NCBI GenBank assembly: GCA_963805975.1
Contig: CAWDVR010000005.1
Coordinates: forward strand, 160,001 to 224,000
Direction: 5' to 3'
DNA: 64,000 nt
Source: an uncultured Acidobacteriota bacterium
GTDB lineage: Bacteria > Acidobacteriota > Thermoanaerobaculia > Multivoradales > SZUA-115
Position 1 is the stretch's first letter, and each line of letters starts with the position of its first letter. The position numbers were made by a program, and so were the translations under genes. The notes under the pieces are model-generated. The model saw nothing but the letters and a program-made list of their open reading frames with translations. It had not been told where the DNA came from and searched no databases. Of the stretch, positions 11,780-64,000 are shown piece by piece.

Positions 11780-14700
11780 TCAGGAAGGCTGCACCGCCGC
11801 CGCGCCCAGGGCGTCGAGGAGAAAGGCGTAGCGGAAGGCGACCGCACGGTGTCTGGCGTAGCGGCCGGAGGCGCCGGAGTGGCCGGCCTCCATCTCGATC
11901 CGCACCAGCACCTTGGTGTCCGCCGTGTTCGCGGCGCGCAGCCGCGCCGCCCACTTCACCGGGCCCCAGTAGGGGACGCGCTGGTCGTTGTACGAGGTGA
12001 GGACCAGAACCTGCGGGTAGCCCGAAGGATGGACGTTCTCGTACGGCGAGTAGGAGCGCATGTAGTCGAACGTCGCCGCCTCGCTCGGGTTGCCCCATTC
12101 CTCGTACTCGATCACGGTGAGCGGCAGCGAGGAGTCGGTCATGCTGTTGACGAGGTCGACCAGCGCCACGTTCGCCACCGCGGCGCGGAACAGGTCCGGC
12201 CGCATGTTGAGCACCGAGCCCACCAAGAGGCCGCTGGCGCTCGAGCCCTCGATGGCGAGCCGCTTGGGGCTGGTGTAGCCCTGGCGGATCAGCTCCTCGG
12301 CGACGGCGATGAAGTCGGTGAAGGTGTTCTTCTTGTTGAGCAGGCGGCCCTGGTCGTGCCAGACCTGGCCCATCTCGCCGCCGCCCCGCGCGTGGGCCAT
12401 GGCGTAGACGAACCCGCGGTCGAGCAGGCTCAGGAGGTCCGGCGAGAACATGGCCTCGAGCTTGCGGCCATAGGCGCCGTAGCCGATCAGCAGGCAGGGG
12501 TTGTCGCCGTCCTTCACCAGGCCGCGGCGGTAGGCGACGGTGATCGGCACCTCGGTGCCGTCCGGGGCGCGGGTCGAGATGCGCTCGGTGACGTACCTCG
12601 AGGGATCGTAGCCGCGTACCGGGGTCTGCTTCAGGAGCTCGAGTTTGCCCAGGTCCATCCGGTATTCGAAGATCGACATCGGCGTGGTGAGCGAGGTGTA
12701 GCGGAAGCGCAACGCCGGCGAGCCGTACTGCGTGTTGTCCTGCGGCCAGATGGTGTACGAGGGCTCGGGGAACGCCACCTCGTGCTCCTTGCCGGTGGTG
12801 CGCTCGACGATGCGGATACGGGGCAGGCCGCGGCTCTGCTCGAAGAGCACCACGTAGTCCTGGAACACCTCGAAGCTCTCGATGCGGATGCCGGGCCGCT
12901 CGGGCAGCACCTCGCGCCAGCTCGGCCGCGAGGGGCTGGCGACCGGCGTCTCCATCAAGCGGAAGTTCGGCGCGCCGTCGTTGGTGAGGATCAGGAAGCG
13001 GTCCCGCTGGTGCTGCACGAAGTAGTCGAGACCGAGGCGGCGCGGGGCGAAGACCAGGAGTGGCGCTTCCGGCCGGTTGGCGTCGAGGAGCCGCGCCTCG
13101 CTGGTGGTGGCGCTGTCCGCCCGGATCACCAGGTACTGCTGGCTCTTGGTCTTCTCGACGCTGAGATGGAAGGCCTCGTCCGGCTCGTGGTAGACCAGCG
13201 GATCGGCCTCCGGGTCCGAGCCCATGCGGTGCCGGAACACCTTGTACGGCCGGTTCGCGGCGTCGCGCCGGGCATAGAACAGGGTGCGGTTGTCGTTGGC
13301 CCACTGGAAGTCGCGGAAGGTGTCCTTCATCTGGTCGGGGGCCACCTCGCCGGTCTGCAGATCCTTGACCAGCAGCGTGAACCGCTCGTCGCCCTCGGTG
13401 TCGAGGGTGTAGGCCACGAAGCGGTGGTCGGGGCTGGTGCGCACCCGGCCCAGCCGGAAGTAGTCGTGGCCCTCGGCCATGGCGTTGCTGTCGAGCACCA
13501 CCTCCTCCGGCGCCTCCATGCTCCCCTTCTTGCGGTAGTAGGCGCGGTACGGTTTGTCGGGCTCGGCGCGCGTGTAATAGAAGTAGTCGTCCTGCTGGAA
13601 CGGCATCACCGGGTCGGCCTCGTCGCTGTGGCCCAGGAACTCGTCGTAGAGCTGCTTCTCGAGGCCGGCGAGCGGCGCCATCACGGCGTCGGTGTAGCGG
13701 TTCTCGGCCTCGAGGTGCGCCAGGACCGCGGGGTTGTCGCGGTCCATCAGCCAGGCGTAGTCGTCGGTCCAGCGCCGGCTCTCGAAGATGCGCTCGGTGG
13801 GCGCCACGCGCGCCACGGGAGGATTGGGCGGCTCCGCCGCGGCTGCCGGCGCCCCCGTCTGCACCGCGGCCGGCGCGGGGGCGGTGTGCGAGGCCCCGGT
13901 GTGTGAAGCTGGGCCGGACGGCGGCCCCAGGCTCTCGCGCAGCCGCAGGGACTCTTCGAGGTCCGCCATGGTCCCTACGACGCCGTGCGCGCCGACCAGC
14001 TTGTCGATGGCGAGGCCCAGCTCCTGCAGGCGCTTGGCGAGCGCCACGGCGGCGTCGCTCGCCGGCTCCAGCCCGCCGACGCGCGGGATGGAGAAGAGGT
14101 CCGCCTGGAAGAGGATCTTCTCTTGCGGCAGGTAGGCGGCCAGGATCTCGTCGGCATGGGGGTTGGGCCCCAGGTCCAGGATCTCCACCACGCGCTTGCC
14201 GTCGGTGAAGGTCCGCTTCTTGTCGACCAGCTCGAAGCGGGCAGCCTTGGGATCGAGGCTCAGGGCATCGGGATCGACCGTGCGCACCGCCGCCGCCATG
14301 CGCTCGAGGAGCGGCTGCGCGCGGCGGGTGGTGACGACCGTCGCGCTCTCGGCGATCACCGTGCGGACGCCGCCGCTGTGGGTGTCGTGATGGTGAGTGA
14401 GCACGGCGTAGCGGATCGGCTTGTCCGGGATCTTCTGGTGGATCATCCGCACGGCCTGGGCCGTCATGCCGCTGCTCTGCGGCGCGTCCACCATCAGCAC
14501 GTGGTCCGCGAACTCCACGAACAGCACGTTGGCAAGGCCGTCCACCAGGTGGACGCCCGGCGCCAGCTCGGTGAGCTTGGGCTTCGGCGGCTCCTCGTAC
14601 GGCACCTCCTGGTAGCCGGCCGGGACCTGGAACAGGGACTCGTCGAGCGGCTGGTTGACCTTGACCTCGACGAAGCGCAGGCGCTGGCCCGGCTCGCCGG

Positions 14701-15460
14701 CGCTCGCGGTCTGGAAGCCCGCCGGCACCAGCCAGCCGTCGAGCGGCTGGTAGGGCGGCAGGAAGGTGGTCTCGGTCGCCGTGTCGCCGTAGATGTTGTC
14801 GGTCGAGATCCCGTCGTAGCGGGTGAGGAGGTGCGAGGCGGCGTCGAGGAAGAGCGTGAATACCCGGCCGTTGCTCCAGGCGAAGGAGATCACCTCGTGC
14901 TTCTTGCCCTCGAGGTCCACCTCGCCCAGGAAGCGCAGCGAGCGCGCCCGCCGCTGGGCGTGGCCGAGCATCAGGGCCGGGAACACCCGCTCCAGGTACT
15001 CGAAGTCCTCGAGCGCCAGGCGCTCGTTCTTGCGGAACTTCTTCACCACGTGGTTGGTCTCGATCTTCTCCTCGCCCCGCACCCAGACGCTGCTCGAGAT
15101 CACGATGCCGCCGGCGTTGGAGTAGGTGCGGTCGTCGAACACCCAGCCCTCTTCGAGGTCGAAGGCCCAGTGGTCCCAGAGCGGTGTGGTGGCGAAGGGC
15201 GGCTCCACGGCGGGGCTCTGGTTGCGGAGGATGGTCTCGCCCTGGGCTTTGATCGCCAGCGTCTCGATCGAGTCGATGCGCTCCATGCCGCCCATCACCT
15301 CGATGGCGGCGTCGAGGGCCTTGCGCGCGCGCTGGTAGGAGTCGAGGGTGAGCGACGGCGAGGCCCACAGTTGATCCCCGGGGCGACCCCAGAGGAGAGC
15401 CGGGGCCGTCACCAGCGCCAGCAGGAAGACCCACTTCAGACTCCGATCGGGCTTGCTCAA
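11780..15460 (-). CDS. Secreted fusion of an N-terminal beta-rich domain, an MBL-fold domain and an S9A oligopeptidase B
   Basis: TTG start with RBS GAGGAGGAG and a signal peptide. MBL-like THHHDTHSGG, H, ADLF and GAHG motifs, then a Pro/Ala linker. S9A motifs DDYAWL, GYGAYG, RGGGE, GSSASG (Ser), NDQRV (Asp) and AGHSG (His). Confidence 0.88.
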   Translation of the reverse strand: MSKPDRSLKWVFLLALVTAPALLWGRPGDQLWASPSLTLDSYQRARKALDAAIEVMGGMERIDSIETLAIKAQGETILRNQSPAVEPPFATTPLWDHWAFDLEEGWVFDDRTYSNAGGIVISSSVWVRGEEKIETNHVVKKFRKNERLALEDFEYLERVFPALMLGHAQRRARSLRFLGEVDLEGKKHEVISFAWSNGRVFTLFLDAASHLLTRYDGISTDNIYGDTATETTFLPPYQPLDGWLVPAGFQTASAGEPGQRLRFVEVKVNQPLDESLFQVPAGYQEVPYEEPPKPKLTELAPGVHLVDGLANVLFVEFADHVLMVDAPQSSGMTAQAVRMIHQKIPDKPIRYAVLTHHHDTHSGGVRTVIAESATVVTTRRAQPLLERMAAAVRTVDPDALSLDPKAARFELVDKKRTFTDGKRVVEILDLGPNPHADEILAAYLPQEKILFQADLFSIPRVGGLEPASDAAVALAKRLQELGLAIDKLVGAHGVVGTMADLEESLRLRESLGPPSGPASHTGASHTAPAPAAVQTGAPAAAAEPPNPPVARVAPTERIFESRRWTDDYAWLMDRDNPAVLAHLEAENRYTDAVMAPLAGLEKQLYDEFLGHSDEADPVMPFQQDDYFYYTRAEPDKPYRAYYRKKGSMEAPEEVVLDSNAMAEGHDYFRLGRVRTSPDHRFVAYTLDTEGDERFTLLVKDLQTGEVAPDQMKDTFRDFQWANDNRTLFYARRDAANRPYKVFRHRMGSDPEADPLVYHEPDEAFHLSVEKTKSQQYLVIRADSATTSEARLLDANRPEAPLLVFAPRRLGLDYFVQHQRDRFLILTNDGAPNFRLMETPVASPSRPSWREVLPERPGIRIESFEVFQDYVVLFEQSRGLPRIRIVERTTGKEHEVAFPEPSYTIWPQDNTQYGSPALRFRYTSLTTPMSIFEYRMDLGKLELLKQTPVRGYDPSRYVTERISTRAPDGTEVPITVAYRRGLVKDGDNPCLLIGYGAYGRKLEAMFSPDLLSLLDRGFVYAMAHARGGGEMGQVWHDQGRLLNKKNTFTDFIAVAEELIRQGYTSPKRLAIEGSSASGLLVGSVLNMRPDLFRAAVANVALVDLVNSMTDSSLPLTVIEYEEWGNPSEAATFDYMRSYSPYENVHPSGYPQVLVLTSYNDQRVPYWGPVKWAARLRAANTADTKVLVRIEMEAGHSGASGRYARHRAVAFRYAFLLDALGAAAVQPS

Positions 15461-15558: not shown

Positions 15559-17139
15559 ATGAGCGCCGACACCATGGGGCGCCTGGCCCGCGCCCCCCAC
15601 CCCGCACTCTTCCGCCTGCTCTACGAGCCGCAGCTCGCGGCCGACAAGGGTCCGCTCGTACCGCTGCTGCTCGCGGTCGACGCCGCGCACGTGGTGATGC
15701 TCGCCGAGCGCGGCCTGCTGCCGCCGGCGGTGGCGGCGCAGCTCCTGGCGGTCAACCGCGATCTCGAGGCGAGAGTCGCCGCCGGCGAGGACCCGATCGG
15801 CGAGCCGGCGAGCCACCGCGGTCTCTACGCGCTCTACGAGCACCTCTACGTCGAGCGCCTGGGCGCGGAGGCCGGCGGCGCAGCCCATTTCGCGAGGAGC
15901 CGCAACGACGTCAACGCCGCGCTGACCCGGCTCCGCCTCGGAGCGGTCCTCTTCGGGATCTCGGAGCAGGCGGCGGCCCTGCTGGAGCTCCTCCTGGCCC
16001 TCGCGGAGCGGCACGCCGGCACGCTGATGGCGGGCTTCACCCACTTCGAGCCGGCGCAGCCCACCTCCTTCGGCCACTACCTCGCGGCGGTCGCCGCCGA
16101 GCTCCTGCGCACGGCGGAGTGGCTGGCCGAGTCCGCGGCGCGCGCCGACCGCTCGCCGCTCGGCGCCGCGGCCGGCTTCGGCACCTCGCAGCCCATCGAC
16201 CGCGAGCGGGTGGCGGAGCTCCTGGGCTTCTCCGGGGTGATCGAGAGCTCGCTCGACGCCGTGGCCTCGCGCGACTACGCGGTGCACGCGGGCGGCGCCC
16301 TCGCCATGCTCGGCATGACCCTCACCCGCCTCGCCTCCGACCTCCAGACCTGGGGCAGCGCCGCCTACCGCTTCCTCGCCTGGCCGGACGAGCTGGTGAG
16401 CACCAGCTCGATCATGCCCCAGAAGCGAAACGTCTTCGCGCTCGAGAACCTGCGCGGGCGCGCCGTCCGGCCCGTGGGGGCGCTCGTCAACCTGTTGCTG
16501 GGCTTGAAGAACACGCCCTTCACCAACAGCGTGGAAGTGAGCGGCGAGGCGACCTCTCACCTCTGGCCGGCGGCCGAGGCCGCGACGCTCTCGCTCGAGC
16601 TCGCCCGCCTGCTGCTCGAAGCGATGGAGGTGGACGCTTCGCGCATGACGGCGTTCCTTTCCGGCCGCCAGACCACCATGACGGCGGTCGCCAACCTCCT
16701 GGTCGAGGACCACGGCCTGCCCTTCCGCACCGCCCACGGCGCGGCCGGGCGCCTGGCGGCCGAGCAGCCGGACGCCGAGGAACGACCCGAGGAGGTGGCG
16801 CGGCGCCTGCCGGAGATCGTGGCGGAGCTGGCCGGCCGGCGGATCGAGATCGATCCCGCCCGCCTGCGCCGGGCCCTCGACCCGGCCGCTCTCCTGGCCG
16901 GGGCCGTCTACGGCGGGGGCCCGGCGCCGGAGTCCGTCCGCAACCAGCTCGCGGCCCTGGGCGGGCGCCTCGCGGCCCTCTGCCGCGACCTCGAAGAGCG
17001 GAAAAAAAGGAAAGAGGAGGCGGCCTGGCGTCTCACCGCGGCGGTTTCGCGCATTCTTAGAGCGAGCGACGAAACCGCCGCCAGGGAGACCCATCGCGAT
17101 GCCGACCCGGTACGACTCACTCCTCGACCCGATCCGTGA
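15559..17139 (+). CDS. Argininosuccinate-lyase-like protein (PacQ/DabB-type)
   Basis: ARSRND, MAGFTH..PAQP, PLGAAAGFG and SSIMPQKRN (fumarase/aspartase superfamily signature). A TATACT hexamer lies at 15504. Confidence 0.9.
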   Translation: MSADTMGRLARAPHPALFRLLYEPQLAADKGPLVPLLLAVDAAHVVMLAERGLLPPAVAAQLLAVNRDLEARVAAGEDPIGEPASHRGLYALYEHLYVERLGAEAGGAAHFARSRNDVNAALTRLRLGAVLFGISEQAAALLELLLALAERHAGTLMAGFTHFEPAQPTSFGHYLAAVAAELLRTAEWLAESAARADRSPLGAAAGFGTSQPIDRERVAELLGFSGVIESSLDAVASRDYAVHAGGALAMLGMTLTRLASDLQTWGSAAYRFLAWPDELVSTSSIMPQKRNVFALENLRGRAVRPVGALVNLLLGLKNTPFTNSVEVSGEATSHLWPAAEAATLSLELARLLLEAMEVDASRMTAFLSGRQTTMTAVANLLVEDHGLPFRTAHGAAGRLAAEQPDAEERPEEVARRLPEIVAELAGRRIEIDPARLRRALDPAALLAGAVYGGGPAPESVRNQLAALGGRLAALCRDLEERKKRKEEAAWRLTAAVSRILRASDETAARETHRDADPVRLTPRPDP

Positions 17140-18224
17140 CCTCCAGATCGTCCGCGTGCCGCGCCGCGGGGCGTTGACCGGCGGTGCCCAGCTCTGGGCC
17201 CAGCTCGAGCTGGGCCTGCCCGGCGGCATGAAGGACCGCGTCGCCCTGCGGATGATCGAAGAAGCCGAGGCGCGAGGCGAGATCCACCCCGGCGACACGC
17301 TCATCGAGAGCTCCTCCGGCAACCTCGCCGAGGGCCTCGCCAGGGTTGGCCGGCTCAAGGGCTACCAGGTCATCATCGTCACCGACCCGCGCATCGACGA
17401 CCTGATGGTGGCGAAGCTCCGGGCCCTGGGAGCGCGGCTCGAGATCGTCGAGGACTACGACCCGGTGGGCGGCTGGCAGAGCTCGCGCCTCAGGCGCCTG
17501 CGCGAGATGCTCGATGCCCTGCCCGGCGCGCACTGGACCATGCAGTACGACACCCCTGCCAATGGCGCGGCCTACACCGCGGTCGGGCCGGCCCTGGTGG
17601 AGCTCCTGGGGCCGCGCATCGGCGCCCTGGTGGGCACGGTTGGGCAGCGGCGGCTCGCTCTGCGGCATCGCCGCCTCGCTCGCACCGCTGGTGCCGGGCC
17701 TGAAGGTGGTCGCCGTCGACGCCGTGGGCTCCGTCCTCTTCCACCAGCCGGACCGCCGGCGCCTGCAATCCGGCCACAGCAACAGCATCGTGCCCGGCAA
17801 CGTGCGCTACGAGCGCATCGACGAGGTGCACTGGCTCTCGGACGGCGAGGTGTTCGACGGCTGCCGCGAGCTGGCGCGGGTGGCCGGCGTCTTCGGCGGC
17901 GGCTCCTCGGGCGCCGCCTGGGTGGTGGCGTCGTGGGTGGCCGGGCGTTTCGCGCCCGACGAGCACGTGATCGCCATCCTTCCCGACCGCGGCGACCGCT
18001 ACGCCAAGACCATCTACTCCGACGCCTTCCTCGAAGAGCAGGGCATTGCCGGCCGCGCCGCCGCCTTGGAGCCGGTGCCGATCCGCTACGGCGAGGAGGT
18101 GGCCGAGGCCTGGAGCTACGCCCCGCTGCCGCACGGCACGGACGTGCCGTACCACGCGGCCTCCGCGCGCCGTACCTCCGACCTCGCCGCCGAGCTGGGC
18201 CTGGTCGAGGCAGCCGTGGTCTGA
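17099..18224 (+). CDS. PLP-dependent cysteine-synthase-like beta-replacement enzyme (DabA/PacS/SbnA-like); frameshift near 17640
   Basis: PGGMKDR (PLP Lys), ESSSGN and QY in one frame; GSGGSLCG, GGSSGA and PDRGDRY in the next frame. Confidence 0.88.
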
Positions 18225-18262
18225 CGGCCGCCCGCGCGCCGCCCTTTGCCGCCCGCCACGCC

Positions 18263-19504
18263 ATGAGGCACTTCGCCTTCGTCGAGAGCAACACCACCGG
18301 CACCGGCCGCCGGGCCGTGGAGCGCCTGCTGGCCGAGGGCGAGCGGGTGAGCTTCCTCACCCGGAGCCGCGGCAAGTACCCGTTCCTCGCGGTACCCCAG
18401 CCCGGCCTCGCGGTCCACGACGTGGAGACCAACAGCGCCCCCGAGGTGACGCGGGCGCTCCAGAACCTCGCCGGCCGCGAGCGGCTGGACGCCGTCGTCA
18501 CCTTCTCGGACTTCTACGTCGACATCGTGGCCGAAGCTGCGCGCCGCCTCGGCTTCCCCGGCCTGGACCCGGCCGCCGCCGCCACCTGCCGGAGCAAGCA
18601 CAAGACCCGGCTGGCGCTCGCCAGGGCCGGCCTGCCGACGCCGGTGGTGCGCCTCGTGGCGAGCGAGGAGGAGGCGCGCCGCGCCGCGGCGGAGATCGGC
18701 TTCCCGGCGGTGGTCAAGCCGATCGCCGACAGCTCGAGCACCGGCGTGAAACGGGTGGAGAGCGAAGACGAGCTCGTGGCCCAGTTCCGCCTGCTCGCCG
18801 GCTGGCAGGAGAACGTGCGCGGCCAGAAGCTCGACGGCAGCGTGCTCGTCGAGAGCTACCTCCAAGGCGACGAGCACAGCGTCGAGACCTTCACCCTGCC
18901 GGCCGGCGAGACGCGCGTCGTGGGGGTGACCGACAAGCACCTGTCGCCGCCGCCGAACTTCGTCGAGACCGGGCACGACTTCCCTTCCGGCGCCGCTCCC
19001 TCCCGCCGCGCCGCGCTCGAAGACGCGGCCCGGGCCGCCCTCGCCGCCGTGGGCTTCGACTTCGGTCCCGCGCACACCGAGATCCGCTTCACCGAGCGCG
19101 GCCCGGTGGTGGTGGAGATCAACGCCCGCCTGGCGGGCGGCATGATCCCCGAGCTGGTGGCGCTCGCGACCGGCATCGACCTGTCGCGCGCCTGGCTCGA
19201 CGCCGCAGCGGGTGGCCGTCCGGCGCTCGAGCCCTCGCGGGCCGGCTGCGCCTCGATCCGCTTCCTGATATCGCCCGCCGCCGGCCGCCTCGCGCGGGTG
19301 GAGGGCGAGGAGGAGGCGCGCGCCGTGCCCGGCGTCACGGAGGTGCTGGTCACCGCCCGGCCGGGCGCCCTGCTGGCGCCGGCGGTGGACGCCTACGGCC
19401 GGCTCGGCCACGCCATCGCCGCCGGCGCCAGCCGCGAGGCGGTCGCCGCCGCTGCCGAGACCGGCACGCGCGCCATCCGTTTCGTCCTGGAGCCCGCCCT
19501 GTAA
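18263..19504 (+). CDS. ATP-grasp amino-acid ligase
   Basis: MRHFAFVESNTTGTG, CRSK..TR, VVKP...SS.GV, VESYL.G.E.SVE, HTEIR and EINARLAGG motifs. Confidence 0.9.
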   Translation: MRHFAFVESNTTGTGRRAVERLLAEGERVSFLTRSRGKYPFLAVPQPGLAVHDVETNSAPEVTRALQNLAGRERLDAVVTFSDFYVDIVAEAARRLGFPGLDPAAAATCRSKHKTRLALARAGLPTPVVRLVASEEEARRAAAEIGFPAVVKPIADSSSTGVKRVESEDELVAQFRLLAGWQENVRGQKLDGSVLVESYLQGDEHSVETFTLPAGETRVVGVTDKHLSPPPNFVETGHDFPSGAAPSRRAALEDAARAALAAVGFDFGPAHTEIRFTERGPVVVEINARLAGGMIPELVALATGIDLSRAWLDAAAGGRPALEPSRAGCASIRFLISPAAGRLARVEGEEEARAVPGVTEVLVTARPGALLAPAVDAYGRLGHAIAAGASREAVAAAAETGTRAIRFVLEPAL

Positions 19505-19559
19505 GTCACGCCAGGGCCCCTCAAGTCACGCAAGGCCAAGGCCACCGCACTACTGCAAC

Positions 19560-20828
19560 GTGCAAACGGAGAGCGACGCCAAGCAGTGGGTCCTGATCGT
19601 GCCCGACGGTGCGGCCGACCTCGACCGCACCGGGGGCCGCTCGCCGCTGGTCGAGGCCCGCACGCCCTATCTCGACTTCGTGGCGCGCGAGGGGCGCTCG
19701 GGCCTGATGCGCACGCTCTACCCCGACCTGCCGCAGGGGAGCATCGTCGCTCTCCTCGGCATGCTGGGCTGGGAGCCGCACCGCTGGCACCCGGACGGCC
19801 GCGCCTCCTGCGAGCTCCTGGCGCTCGACGGCGTCACCCTCGCTCCCGGCGACCTGGCGTTTCGCGCCAACCTCGTCCGCATGGAGGGCGCGCGCCTCGC
19901 GAGCTACAACGCGGGCTACATCGAGAGCGAGCACGCCCGCCTGCTGCTCGAGCGGGTCCGCCGCGCCACCGGAGCCGAGTTCTCCGACTTCGAGCTGTTC
20001 CACAACTCCGACTTCAGGAACTGCCTGGTGGTGCGGCGCGCCGGCGTCGATCCCAAGGACCTCGCCTGCCCCGAGCCGCACGAGCGCCAGGGCGAGGAGT
20101 TCGACCTCGCCCACCTGATCGCCGGCAGCAGTCCCGCCAGCCGCGCCCTCGCCCGGCGCCTCAACGCCTATCTCGCGGCGGTCGCCCGCGTGCTGGCCGG
20201 CGAGCAGGCCAACATGCTCTTCCCGTGGAGCGCCTCGCGGCACTTCTCGCTGCCGGCCTTCCGCGAGGTCTCCGGCGTCGAAGGCCCCACCGCCATCGTC
20301 GGCGCCATGGACTTTCTCCAGGGTATCGCCAAGGCCGGCGGCATCGACTTCCACAAGATCGGCAACGGCCGCCCGCGGACAGACTACGCCGGCAAGGGCG
20401 ACAAGGTGCTGGAGCTCTTGGCGAGCGGCCACCAGCTCGTGGTCTGCCACGTCAACGGCCCGGACGAGGCCTCCCACGAGGGCGACCGCGAGCTCAAGAT
20501 CTCCTGCATCGAGGAGATCGACACCCACATCGTGGGGCCGGTGGTGGAGCATTTCCTGGCCCGCCCGCACGAGCTGGGCGGAGTGATGGTGGTGCCGGAC
20601 CATTTCACCAACTGGGCCGTGGCCCACGGCGAGGGCAGCCAGCGCGCCCAGGCGCACTCGATCGATCCCAGCCCCTTCGCGGTGTGGGACGGCATCCATC
20701 GCGACACCGTCTCGTACTTCGGCGAAGACGCCGCCGCCGGCGGCGCCTTCGGCCCGGAGCCCGTGAGCCACCTGGACCTGCTCCAAGTGCTGGGCGTGGC
20801 GCGGCGGGTGGCGGTGGCGGTCGGCTGA
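19560..20828 (+). CDS. ApgM-type cofactor-independent phosphoglycerate mutase / phosphotransferase (alkaline phosphatase superfamily)
   Basis: IVPDGAAD, TP.LD, PQGS (phospho-Ser), GRA..E, AFRANL, PDEASH, PDH and HS.DP.P motifs. Confidence 0.85.
   Translation: MQTESDAKQWVLIVPDGAADLDRTGGRSPLVEARTPYLDFVAREGRSGLMRTLYPDLPQGSIVALLGMLGWEPHRWHPDGRASCELLALDGVTLAPGDLAFRANLVRMEGARLASYNAGYIESEHARLLLERVRRATGAEFSDFELFHNSDFRNCLVVRRAGVDPKDLACPEPHERQGEEFDLAHLIAGSSPASRALARRLNAYLAAVARVLAGEQANMLFPWSASRHFSLPAFREVSGVEGPTAIVGAMDFLQGIAKAGGIDFHKIGNGRPRTDYAGKGDKVLELLASGHQLVVCHVNGPDEASHEGDRELKISCIEEIDTHIVGPVVEHFLARPHELGGVMVVPDHFTNWAVAHGEGSQRAQAHSIDPSPFAVWDGIHRDTVSYFGEDAAAGGAFGPEPVSHLDLLQVLGVARRVAVAVG

Positions 20829-20848: not shown

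Positions 20849-64000
<43,152 letters not shown>

Follow-up and report, generated by a model that had tools for sequence, protein, structure and literature searches.

An ApgM-like protein occupies the place of the threonine kinase in a DabBC-type operon of an uncultured Acidobacteriota bacterium

Here, we present an analysis of a four-gene operon from an uncultured Acidobacteriota bacterium, the closest named relative of which is a Thermoanaerobaculia metagenome-assembled genome. The operon (15559-20828, all four genes on the + strand) lies in a stretch of 64,000 nucleotides, referred to here as the window (C5:160001-224000 of the 5.36-Mb genome, completeness 96%). It encodes an argininosuccinate lyase (ASL)-like lyase, a pyridoxal phosphate (PLP)-dependent enzyme, an ATP-grasp protein, and an ApgM-like protein. 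The first three, referred to here as the trio, are of the kinds that make 2,3-diaminopropionate (Dap) or 2,3-diaminobutyrate (Dab) in other bacteria; the fourth stands where operons of this type have the Thr kinase.

RESULTS

Organization of the locus

The genes of the operon are tightly packed, with a 41-nt overlap between the lyase and PLP genes followed by gaps of 38 nt and 55 nt (Table 1). The operon converges on a giant nonribosomal peptide synthetase (NRPS) line, the thioesterase end of which (- strand, 20849) is located 20 nt from the ApgM-like gene. The same four-gene set was found intact in other genomes and, therefore, the grouping is not due to chance. A scan of the locus for promoters found none, and its single terminator-like match was at chance level. 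One extra base near 17640 breaks the reading frame of the PLP gene; this base is absent from the same-genus ortholog and from the contigs of two of four public sequencing runs, the other two having no piece that spans the site. Because the NRPS genes are broken likewise many times and the base is absent in relatives, we consider it likely, but not proven, that this base is an assembly error; a real lesion in the strain is the alternative.

Table 1. Coordinates of the features discussed
Feature	Position in window	Strand	Evidence
ASL-like lyase, DabC C-terminal type	15559..17139	+	Pfam Lyase_1 (E 1.8e-34), ASL_C2; NCBIfam PRK02186 C-half; GFTHF and SSIMPQKRN motifs
PLP beta-replacement enzyme, DabB/SbnA type	17099..18224	+	PALP in two frames; best family TIGR03945 (SbnA), both halves
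ATP-grasp ligase-like protein, DabC N-terminal type	18263..19504	+	ATP-grasp_4, LAL_C2, PRK02186 N-half
ApgM/HomK-like two-metal phosphotransferase (predicted), Asn clade, 422 aa	19560..20828	+	PF10143, PF01676
Codon of Ser61, predicted phospho-enzyme nucleophile	19740..19742	+	Ser in 121/121 aligned rows
Codon of Asn299, specificity column	20454..20456	+	Asn in 121/121 rows
Downstream part of NRPS line with terminal thioesterase	20849..64000	-	Pfam domains, motif census
Adenylation (A) domain, frameshifted, code DIWEITADD	45100..45580	-	Read by hand from two frames

A profile of intact orthologs of the window's PLP enzyme matched SbnA structures first (E 4e-61); the enzyme has the PLP-binding Lys45, and its best family match is TIGR03945. 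Both halves of PRK02186 are covered, by the two separate genes for the lyase and the ATP-grasp protein. According to Li et al. (2024, PMC10906522), DabB couples phospho-Thr or phospho-Ser with L-Asp, and Dab or Dap is then released by DabC, which comprises an ATP-grasp part and a lyase part; Dab formation requires the GHMP kinase DabA, DabBC alone gave Dap in vivo, and the ATP-grasp part is left without an assigned role. In two Streptomycetaceae plasmid reference clusters, the gene order is lyase, kinase, and PLP::ATP-grasp. Judged by its family matches, the trio corresponds to the published DabBC route to 2,3-diamino acids, and its chemistry is already known. By analogy with this route, the lyase is predicted to free fumarate from the Asp adduct, and L-Asp would be the amine donor and Dap or Dab the product. 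Two points of a preliminary description of this DNA, made from its letters alone, are thereby borne out: the tightly packed four-gene operon converging on an NRPS agrees with the positions, families, spacing, and intact sets elsewhere, and the assignment of the trio to the enzyme types of known diamino acid operons agrees with the family matches and with PMC10906522.

The ApgM-like protein belongs to a clade marked by Asn

The ApgM-like protein scored below the family cut-offs for TIGR00306 (apgM; 238 bits, cut-off 320), TIGR02535 (HomK; 228 bits, cut-off 446, with five other clade members at 221-271), and NF038358 (PhpG; 114 bits, cut-off 545). In its predicted structure (pLDDT 94), the top fold match is the archaeal mutase 2zkt (Foldseek E 1.5e-27, TM 0.73). 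A protein search gave 383 matches, of which the best 120, at 55-95% identity, were aligned with the query (121 rows). S61, D302, H306, D347, H348, and H366 are kept in all 121 rows, and D16 is kept in 118, with gaps in the other 3. In the alignment, Ser61 falls on the GS motif found in 3idd and in HomK-type proteins. In the column that precedes the metal-binding Asp by three residues, the HomK-type proteins have Glu (12/12), the mutase-type proteins Lys (10/10), and the window family Asn (Asn299, 121/121); this column was placed via the spacing to the DH motif and the Glu/Lys split, BT2402 itself being absent from the alignment. The GapMind study (2026, bioRxiv 10.1101/2024.10.14.618325) reports that HomK (TIGR02535) rescues E. 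coli thrB and that one site separates HomK (Glu, E299 of BT2402) from the mutases (Lys). In our set, 7 of the 12 Glu-type genes adjoin a gene for threonine synthase.

In a quick tree, 40 rows of the Asn family form one long-branch clade (SH-aLRT 100) that is sister to the Glu group, with the Lys-type rows as the outgroup; within this single Asn clade, copies linked to the trio and copies linked to a CysM-like gene (see below) are interleaved. The preliminary description, which proposed such a phylogeny, had drawn on an ApgM subfamily suggested to be a homoserine kinase (TIGR02535). The neighborhood of HomK-type proteins is what the tree recovers; however, the protein stands in a clade of its own and is not a member of TIGR02535, given its score and its Asn instead of Glu. 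Looser Asn-type relatives make up 23 of 130 representatives besides the query, some of them fused to nucleotidyltransferase; P0128, P0136, P0143, P0170, P0207, and P0214 are distant ApgM-like proteins of this type with an N-terminal nucleotidyltransferase domain. A single-protein scan of the genome contigs with the ApgM-like protein found only 1 relative, and plasmid sequences gave no match to it.

ApgM-like genes and full kinases do not overlap among DabB genomes

Genomes were chosen by a DabB profile and not by ApgM or kinase, and 22 of 300 genomes of the order matched. The Asn clade is present in 10 of these 22 and a full DabA/PduX-type kinase in 8 (E 3e-26 or better), without overlap. The remaining four comprise one in which a kinase gene next to DabB is truncated by the end of its contig, one with a contig ending inside DabB, and two SbnA-like cases without a lyase or ATP-grasp gene. 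The Fisher test for exclusion gave a p of 0.0017, which is overstated because the genomes are kin and not independent. The ApgM-like gene lies inside the operon in nine of its ten genomes and in the tenth beside the lyase gene on a separate contig; in locus L148, it sits between an SbnA-like gene and the trio. In the kinase genomes, the kinase gene is beside DabB in four of eight, and in one of these it is fused to the ATP-grasp gene. This fusion is located at L151:7062-9296 (G176), where a pyruvate kinase gene lies directly upstream of the lyase gene. Threonine aldolase genes are found in 0 of 11 ApgM-type genome loci versus 5 kinase-bearing loci with one.

The Asn clade is enriched among DabB genomes (10/22 versus 8/278 of the others; 18/300 in total), and both states, ApgM and kinase, occur inside two genera. 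A DabB tree was made in which the window's broken DabB was omitted and a same-genus ortholog (86-89% identical) served as its stand-in, with four kinase labels assigned at the genome level. In this tree, the partner state changes three times, two of these changes being forced by starred branches; a single ApgM-partnered clade was rejected (approximately unbiased [AU] test, p 0.0057), and the stand-in is sister to DabBs of kinase genomes. We also looked for a DabB residue diagnostic of the partner and found no clean column; behind the QYD motif, there is only a weak tendency toward Asn in one group versus Ser/Thr in the other.

Using DabA-like queries, no DabA/PacT-type kinase was found in the window genome. 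Its two GHMP (PF00288) matches are both in the mevalonate operon (L150, G000:C1:922000-931000), in which a gene for HMG-CoA reductase fused to a GHMP kinase lies together with a gene of the amino acid kinase family. Likewise, no DabA-like match was found in 73 metagenome loci of the Asn clade, and no kinase in the eight carrier genomes without DabB (0/8). Altogether, the slot of the Thr kinase in this operon of the DabBC type is taken by the ApgM-like protein. The mutual exclusion with a kinase for which the preliminary description proposed a survey is thus seen in the counts above, and neither observation that it named as contrary, a PacT-like kinase elsewhere or an ApgM-like gene not co-conserved with the trio, was made in the window genome or among the DabB genomes, respectively.

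Other mutases and amino acid metabolism of the carriers

Another phosphoglycerate mutase is present in 17 of the 18 carrier genomes (GpmA in 10, a further ApgM in 7), and the exception is a genome that is 74% complete. The window genome has two Lys-type ApgM copies, which score 314-316 bits for TIGR00306, just under the cut-off of 320. These other mutases rule out a role as the sole mutase of the host. One Lys-type ApgM of the genome (L007:6253-8238, G000:C2) is fused to a 2-phosphoglycerate kinase domain in an archaeal-looking arrangement.

SerA and SerC are present in the window genome, in which no homoserine dehydrogenase, no thrC over the cut-off, and no canonical serB were found, possibly reflecting Thr auxotrophy or alternative enzymes. 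Because the genome lacks homoserine dehydrogenase, a role in Thr synthesis is unlikely, and with no thrC over the cut-off either, a housekeeping role of this kind was rejected. The genes around the ApgM-like gene are those of biosynthetic clusters. No 2,4-diaminobutyrate aminotransferase over the cut-off was found in this genome. Canonical serC is missing in four of the five carrier genomes tested, other SerC types not having been searched for, and serA and serC are absent among the scanned neighbor genes of the clade.

Partner genes in the wider family

The metagenome set consists of 73 loci, some of them near duplicates and many of them short; L107 (Asn, 32% identity) was dropped from the original 74 because it falls outside the clade. 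In 44 of the 73, there is a gene for a CysM-like PLP enzyme of ∼300 aa, mostly adjacent to the ApgM-like gene. DabB, lyase, or ATP-grasp genes are found in 7 loci, only a threonine aldolase gene in 3, and a threonine-synthase-like gene together with a gene for 3'-phosphoadenosine 5'-phosphosulfate (PAPS) reductase in 2. In L085:9998-13194 and L097:5434-8545, the genes for ApgM, the threonine-synthase-like PLP enzyme, and PAPS reductase lie in a row, which resembles an archaeal-type cysteate cassette. The CysM-like partner was also found in six of the eight non-DabB carrier genomes, and its best structure match is Mycobacterium CysM, an O-phosphoserine sulfhydrylase (E 5e-44). The ApgM-like gene is usually within ∼100 nt of its partner, and it is also found in the non-NRPS loci L085, L095, and L097. 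Ornithine cyclodeaminase (OCD)-like SbnB was considered as the usual partner and ruled out (1/73 loci, at a distance of 5.9 kb).

According to PMC9457059, the substrates of cysteate synthases are phosphoserine and sulfite, and one type of these enzymes is derived from threonine synthase. Based on the partner families (DabB, CysM-like, and threonine-synthase-like), every partner class is, or resembles, a consumer of an O-phospho-amino acid. In 11 CysM-type loci, there is an A domain with the code DATK[LM]GHVG, and the discodermin module loading cysteate has the code DSTKIGHVGK (PMC12858407); the common feature of the two is a small residue at the second position.

In L095, L096, and L103, the ApgM and CysM-like pair lies in surface-polysaccharide loci (NeuB, WbqC, flippase) beside a gene for an asparagine-synthase-like amidotransferase, an arrangement that suggests a cysteate-type amide on the polysaccharide. 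A recurring 369-aa protein, for which no Pfam or NCBIfam match was found at the thresholds used, is encoded after the ApgM gene and followed by a glycosyltransferase gene in L039, L041, L043, L044, L065, L076, and L104.

The NRPS line

The NRPS line has at least 24 A domains and extends past the window to about C5:270,000, with the thioesterase at its end. Its frames in 20849-64000 are broken at many places, as expected of long-read indel errors, and therefore protein-level annotation of the genome understates the cluster. Codes of the DIW..ADD type, which we take to be linked to diamino acids, make the DIWEITADD module a likely diamino acid module; similar DIW..ADD/CDD codes are found in other DabB clusters, of the kinase and ApgM kinds alike. 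An unusual code, DA[WF]YIGE[SA][FY] (window 58414-58825, - strand; L181, L206, and L207), recurs in four DabB clusters of the ApgM type, whereas none of the small number of kinase-type clusters that were read had it; this module is a candidate for loading Dap or the ATP-grasp product.

At the upstream end of the NRPS cluster (L004:13598-16083; G000:C5 about 277,600-280,100), there is a VioC/VioD-like pair that matches capreomycidine synthase (TIGR03947, 510 bits, cut-off 391) and scores just below the arginine hydroxylase family (407 bits, cut-off 419). The NRPS peptide may contain a cyclic arginine. Such a pair is also found near the ApgM loci L055, L093, L148, and L239. Divergent from the operon, at window 11780-15460 (-), is a gene for a 1,226-aa protein that looks secreted and in which a metallo-beta-lactamase-fold region is fused to oligopeptidase B (S9); L001 has a 1,229-aa open reading frame at the same place.

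DISCUSSION

Proposed function of the ApgM-like protein

Based on the exclusion of the kinase, the conserved residues, the tree, the redundancy with mutases, and the partner genes, the ApgM-like protein is probably an ATP-independent O-phosphotransferase that acts on serine or threonine and feeds PLP-dependent beta-replacement enzymes. We suggest that a phosphorylated donor such as 2- or 3-phosphoglycerate or phosphoenolpyruvate (PEP) would load Ser61 between two metals and that the phospho-enzyme would then phosphorylate free serine at its side-chain hydroxyl, as thought for HomK with homoserine. As shown for homologs (PMC10906522), the PLP enzyme would eliminate the phosphate and add L-Asp, and the lyase would release fumarate and the diamino acid, which the DIWEITADD module would load. 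In other clusters, the Asn clade likely plays an equivalent part as the supplier of PLP enzymes that form cysteate. Taken as a whole, we give even chances to the reading that the ApgM-like protein makes O-phospho-L-serine (and possibly also O-phospho-threonine) without ATP and that the PLP enzyme and lyase convert it to the 2,3-diamino acid used by the NRPS, which would most likely be Dap.

That serine is the main acceptor is, taken separately, an evenly balanced proposition. We favor serine because one interleaved clade serves both cysteate-type and Dab-type partners; because of the frequent CysM-like pairing (44/73 loci, 6/8 genomes), the DATK[LM]GHVG codes, and the loci with threonine-synthase-like and PAPS reductase genes; and because of the absence of threonine aldolase genes from the 11 ApgM-type genome loci, the SbnA-like neighbor in L148, and the four of five carriers without canonical serC.

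Several observations weigh against O-phosphoserine supply by the ApgM-like protein in place of the kinase. SerA and SerC already make phosphoserine in the window genome, and DabBC gave Dap in vivo without a helper; therefore, an enzyme that phosphorylates serine is less needed. The Asn clade does not have the Glu with which HomK is thought to bind the amino group, although we speculate that a neutral Asn could fit both a hydroxy-acid donor and an amino acid acceptor in one site. As to the replacement of the kinase, one ApgM genome, G938, has, on another contig, a weak kinase match of 91 residues (E 5.6e-4) that the count does not include, and the kinase gene is not next to DabB in four of the eight kinase genomes (56 kb off or on another contig). 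As to the partners, 17 of the 73 metagenome loci, most of them cut short, have no visible partner, and in the well-assembled genome G957 there is none within 9 kb of the ApgM-like gene. In the CysM-like partner, the substrate of which is inferred, the Arg that Mycobacterium CysM has in the corresponding loop is not kept. Finally, the DATK[LM]GHVG code matches the discodermin code at 7/9 positions, the same as it matches plain Asp codes (two positions differ), so that the cysteate reading of this code is suggestive only.

Alternative explanations

The ApgM-like protein could instead be a threonine-specific phosphotransferase, using for example phosphoserine as the donor, and thus a one-for-one stand-in for DabA in an operon that makes Dab. 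It fills the exact DabA slot and excludes DabA, SerA and SerC would provide the donor in a genome in which no canonical SerB was found, and DIW..ADD-type modules are found in kinase and ApgM clusters alike. Moreover, metagenome locus L081 has the genes for ApgM, threonine aldolase, lyase, and DabB on one strand, with the aldolase gene between the ApgM-like and lyase genes, which suits threonine and also counts against serine; and the GapMind authors speculate that HomK relatives beside cobD make phospho-Thr (bioRxiv 10.1101/2024.10.14.618325). However, threonine specificity leaves unexplained the commoner pairing with cysteate-synthase-like enzymes, which would need phosphoserine. The tree has no separate Thr-type subclade, the 11 ApgM-type genome loci have no aldolase gene, and the aldolase genes in L035, L037, and L064 face the opposite way and may belong to another operon. 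We therefore regard this explanation as unlikely, if deserving of attention.

The preliminary description had offered a boost of 3-phosphoglycerate flux as another possibility. In the form considered here, an extra phosphoglycerate mutase would raise 3-phosphoglycerate for SerA and SerC and feed phosphoserine to the PLP enzyme indirectly. The best family score is that for apgM, the closest solved structures are archaeal mutases, and more phosphoserine could be used by every partner class; however, the mutase Lys is absent, the protein groups with HomK-type proteins and not with mutases, and nearly all carriers already have a mutase. Neither serA nor serC is among the neighbor genes scanned, and the tested carriers mostly lack canonical serC (within the scope of that search). 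A flux boost is accordingly disfavored, and we consider it quite improbable. Little probability also attaches to some other movement of phosphate by the ApgM-like protein, either as a phosphatase for surplus phosphoserine or phosphothreonine or as a transferase that has the peptide product or a carrier-bound intermediate as its substrate. The same fold family includes hydrolases, canonical SerB was not found in the window genome, distant Asn-type relatives are fused to nucleotidyltransferase domains, and in L063, L071, and L075, the copy belongs to an NRPS cluster but no PLP partner is visible. Yet, a phosphatase would destroy the substrate of the PLP enzyme, and its alternation with a kinase would be unexpected; the closeness of the gene to its partner and its presence in non-NRPS loci also speak against this explanation.

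Significance

Returning to an ATP-independent Ser/Thr O-phosphotransferase, we tentatively propose, at somewhat less than even chances, a broader picture: an undescribed mobile family with a mutase fold and the Asn mark would have repeatedly displaced GHMP kinases and would supply three or more PLP enzymes that are unrelated to each other, namely the enzyme of the Dap/Dab route and two kinds of cysteate synthase, one of them new and CysM-like and the other threonine-synthase-like. Together with its CysM-like partner, it would make up a cysteate cassette of two genes, a marker of sulfonate-bearing peptides and polysaccharides in uncultured soil bacteria. The Dab/Dap supply role of the preliminary description is supported by the co-conservation with the trio but is too narrow for a family in which most copies lie beside a different PLP enzyme. 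Similarly, its suggestion of an unrecognized variant of the Dap/Dab route is correct for the kinase swap, for which we found no description, but not for the trio, the chemistry of which is published, including kinase-free Dap from phosphoserine (PMC10906522). In our literature search, from which most subscription journals were out of reach, no description of the Asn clade or of the kinase swap was found, and neither was anything that joins phosphoglycerate mutase with NRPS and cysteic acid, any match for the A-domain code strings, or, by title or abstract, any such enzyme in the literature on diaminopropionate and lyases.

If correct, this would be the second case after HomK in which a mutase fold has displaced a GHMP amino acid kinase, and the first that we found in secondary metabolism. 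The published rule of thumb that the presence of the Thr kinase distinguishes Dab from Dap would break, and kinase-less clusters would need a third category. The Asn clade would serve as a genome-mining marker for diamino acid- and cysteate-containing peptides in Acidobacteriota. It is also a candidate for unexplained cysteate supply, as in discodermin, for which no known cysteate genes were found according to PMC12858407; the discodermin genome was not searched for the clade. Because DabA was not obtainable in soluble form (PMC10906522), a soluble ATP-free enzyme for phospho-Ser or phospho-Thr would be useful for making Dap and Dab. Finally, the Glu/Lys/Asn switch makes the question of the phosphate donor of HomK easier to test.

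Comparison with known systems

Like dabABC of Burkholderia thailandensis E264 and the Dab operons for friulimicin, pacidamycin, and napsamycin, the window operon has genes for a PLP enzyme, an ATP-grasp protein, and an ASL-like lyase in the vicinity of an NRPS. The route of those operons, which is predicted for the window operon as well, proceeds via an Asp adduct with loss of fumarate, and DabBC also make Dap from phosphoserine (PMC10906522). Unlike those operons, the window operon has no gene for the GHMP Thr kinase DabA, nor was one found elsewhere in the genome; a protein with the ApgM fold is encoded instead, the ATP-grasp protein and lyase are encoded by separate genes, and there is no threonine aldolase gene. 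In staphyloferrin B synthesis, SbnI acts beside SbnA. The window protein resembles SbnI in being, as we propose, a dedicated supplier of O-phosphoserine for a Dap-making PLP enzyme, but its fold is unrelated, and SbnI takes a nucleotide donor. Moreover, SbnA/B use Glu and a dehydrogenase, while the window operon type uses Asp and a lyase. SbnI is named as a serine kinase in bioRxiv 10.1101/2024.10.14.618325. In contrast to the SbnAB/SulGH Dap route, the window cluster has no OCD-like dehydrogenase gene, the OCD copies of the genome being on other contigs.

Like PhpG of phosphinothricin biosynthesis (NF038358), the window protein is predicted to be a group transferase with the ApgM fold that a natural-product pathway has recruited; PhpG, however, transfers a phosphonoformyl group, and no phosphonate genes were seen in the window locus. 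With ApgM (TIGR00306; PDB 2zkt, 3idd, and 3kd8), it shares the fold and the two-metal phospho-Ser site, but it is only 23-24% identical, lacks the Lys, scores below the cut-off, and is redundant with housekeeping mutases. It differs from HomK in its identity of ∼30-34%, its score, its Asn in place of Glu, and the location of its clade in secondary-metabolite and polysaccharide loci and not beside thrC. Nevertheless, HomK (ThrB2, TIGR02535; BT2402) is the nearest group in the tree and the closest parallel in fold family, catalytic Ser, and metal ligands, as well as in the replacement of a GHMP amino acid kinase by an ApgM fold.

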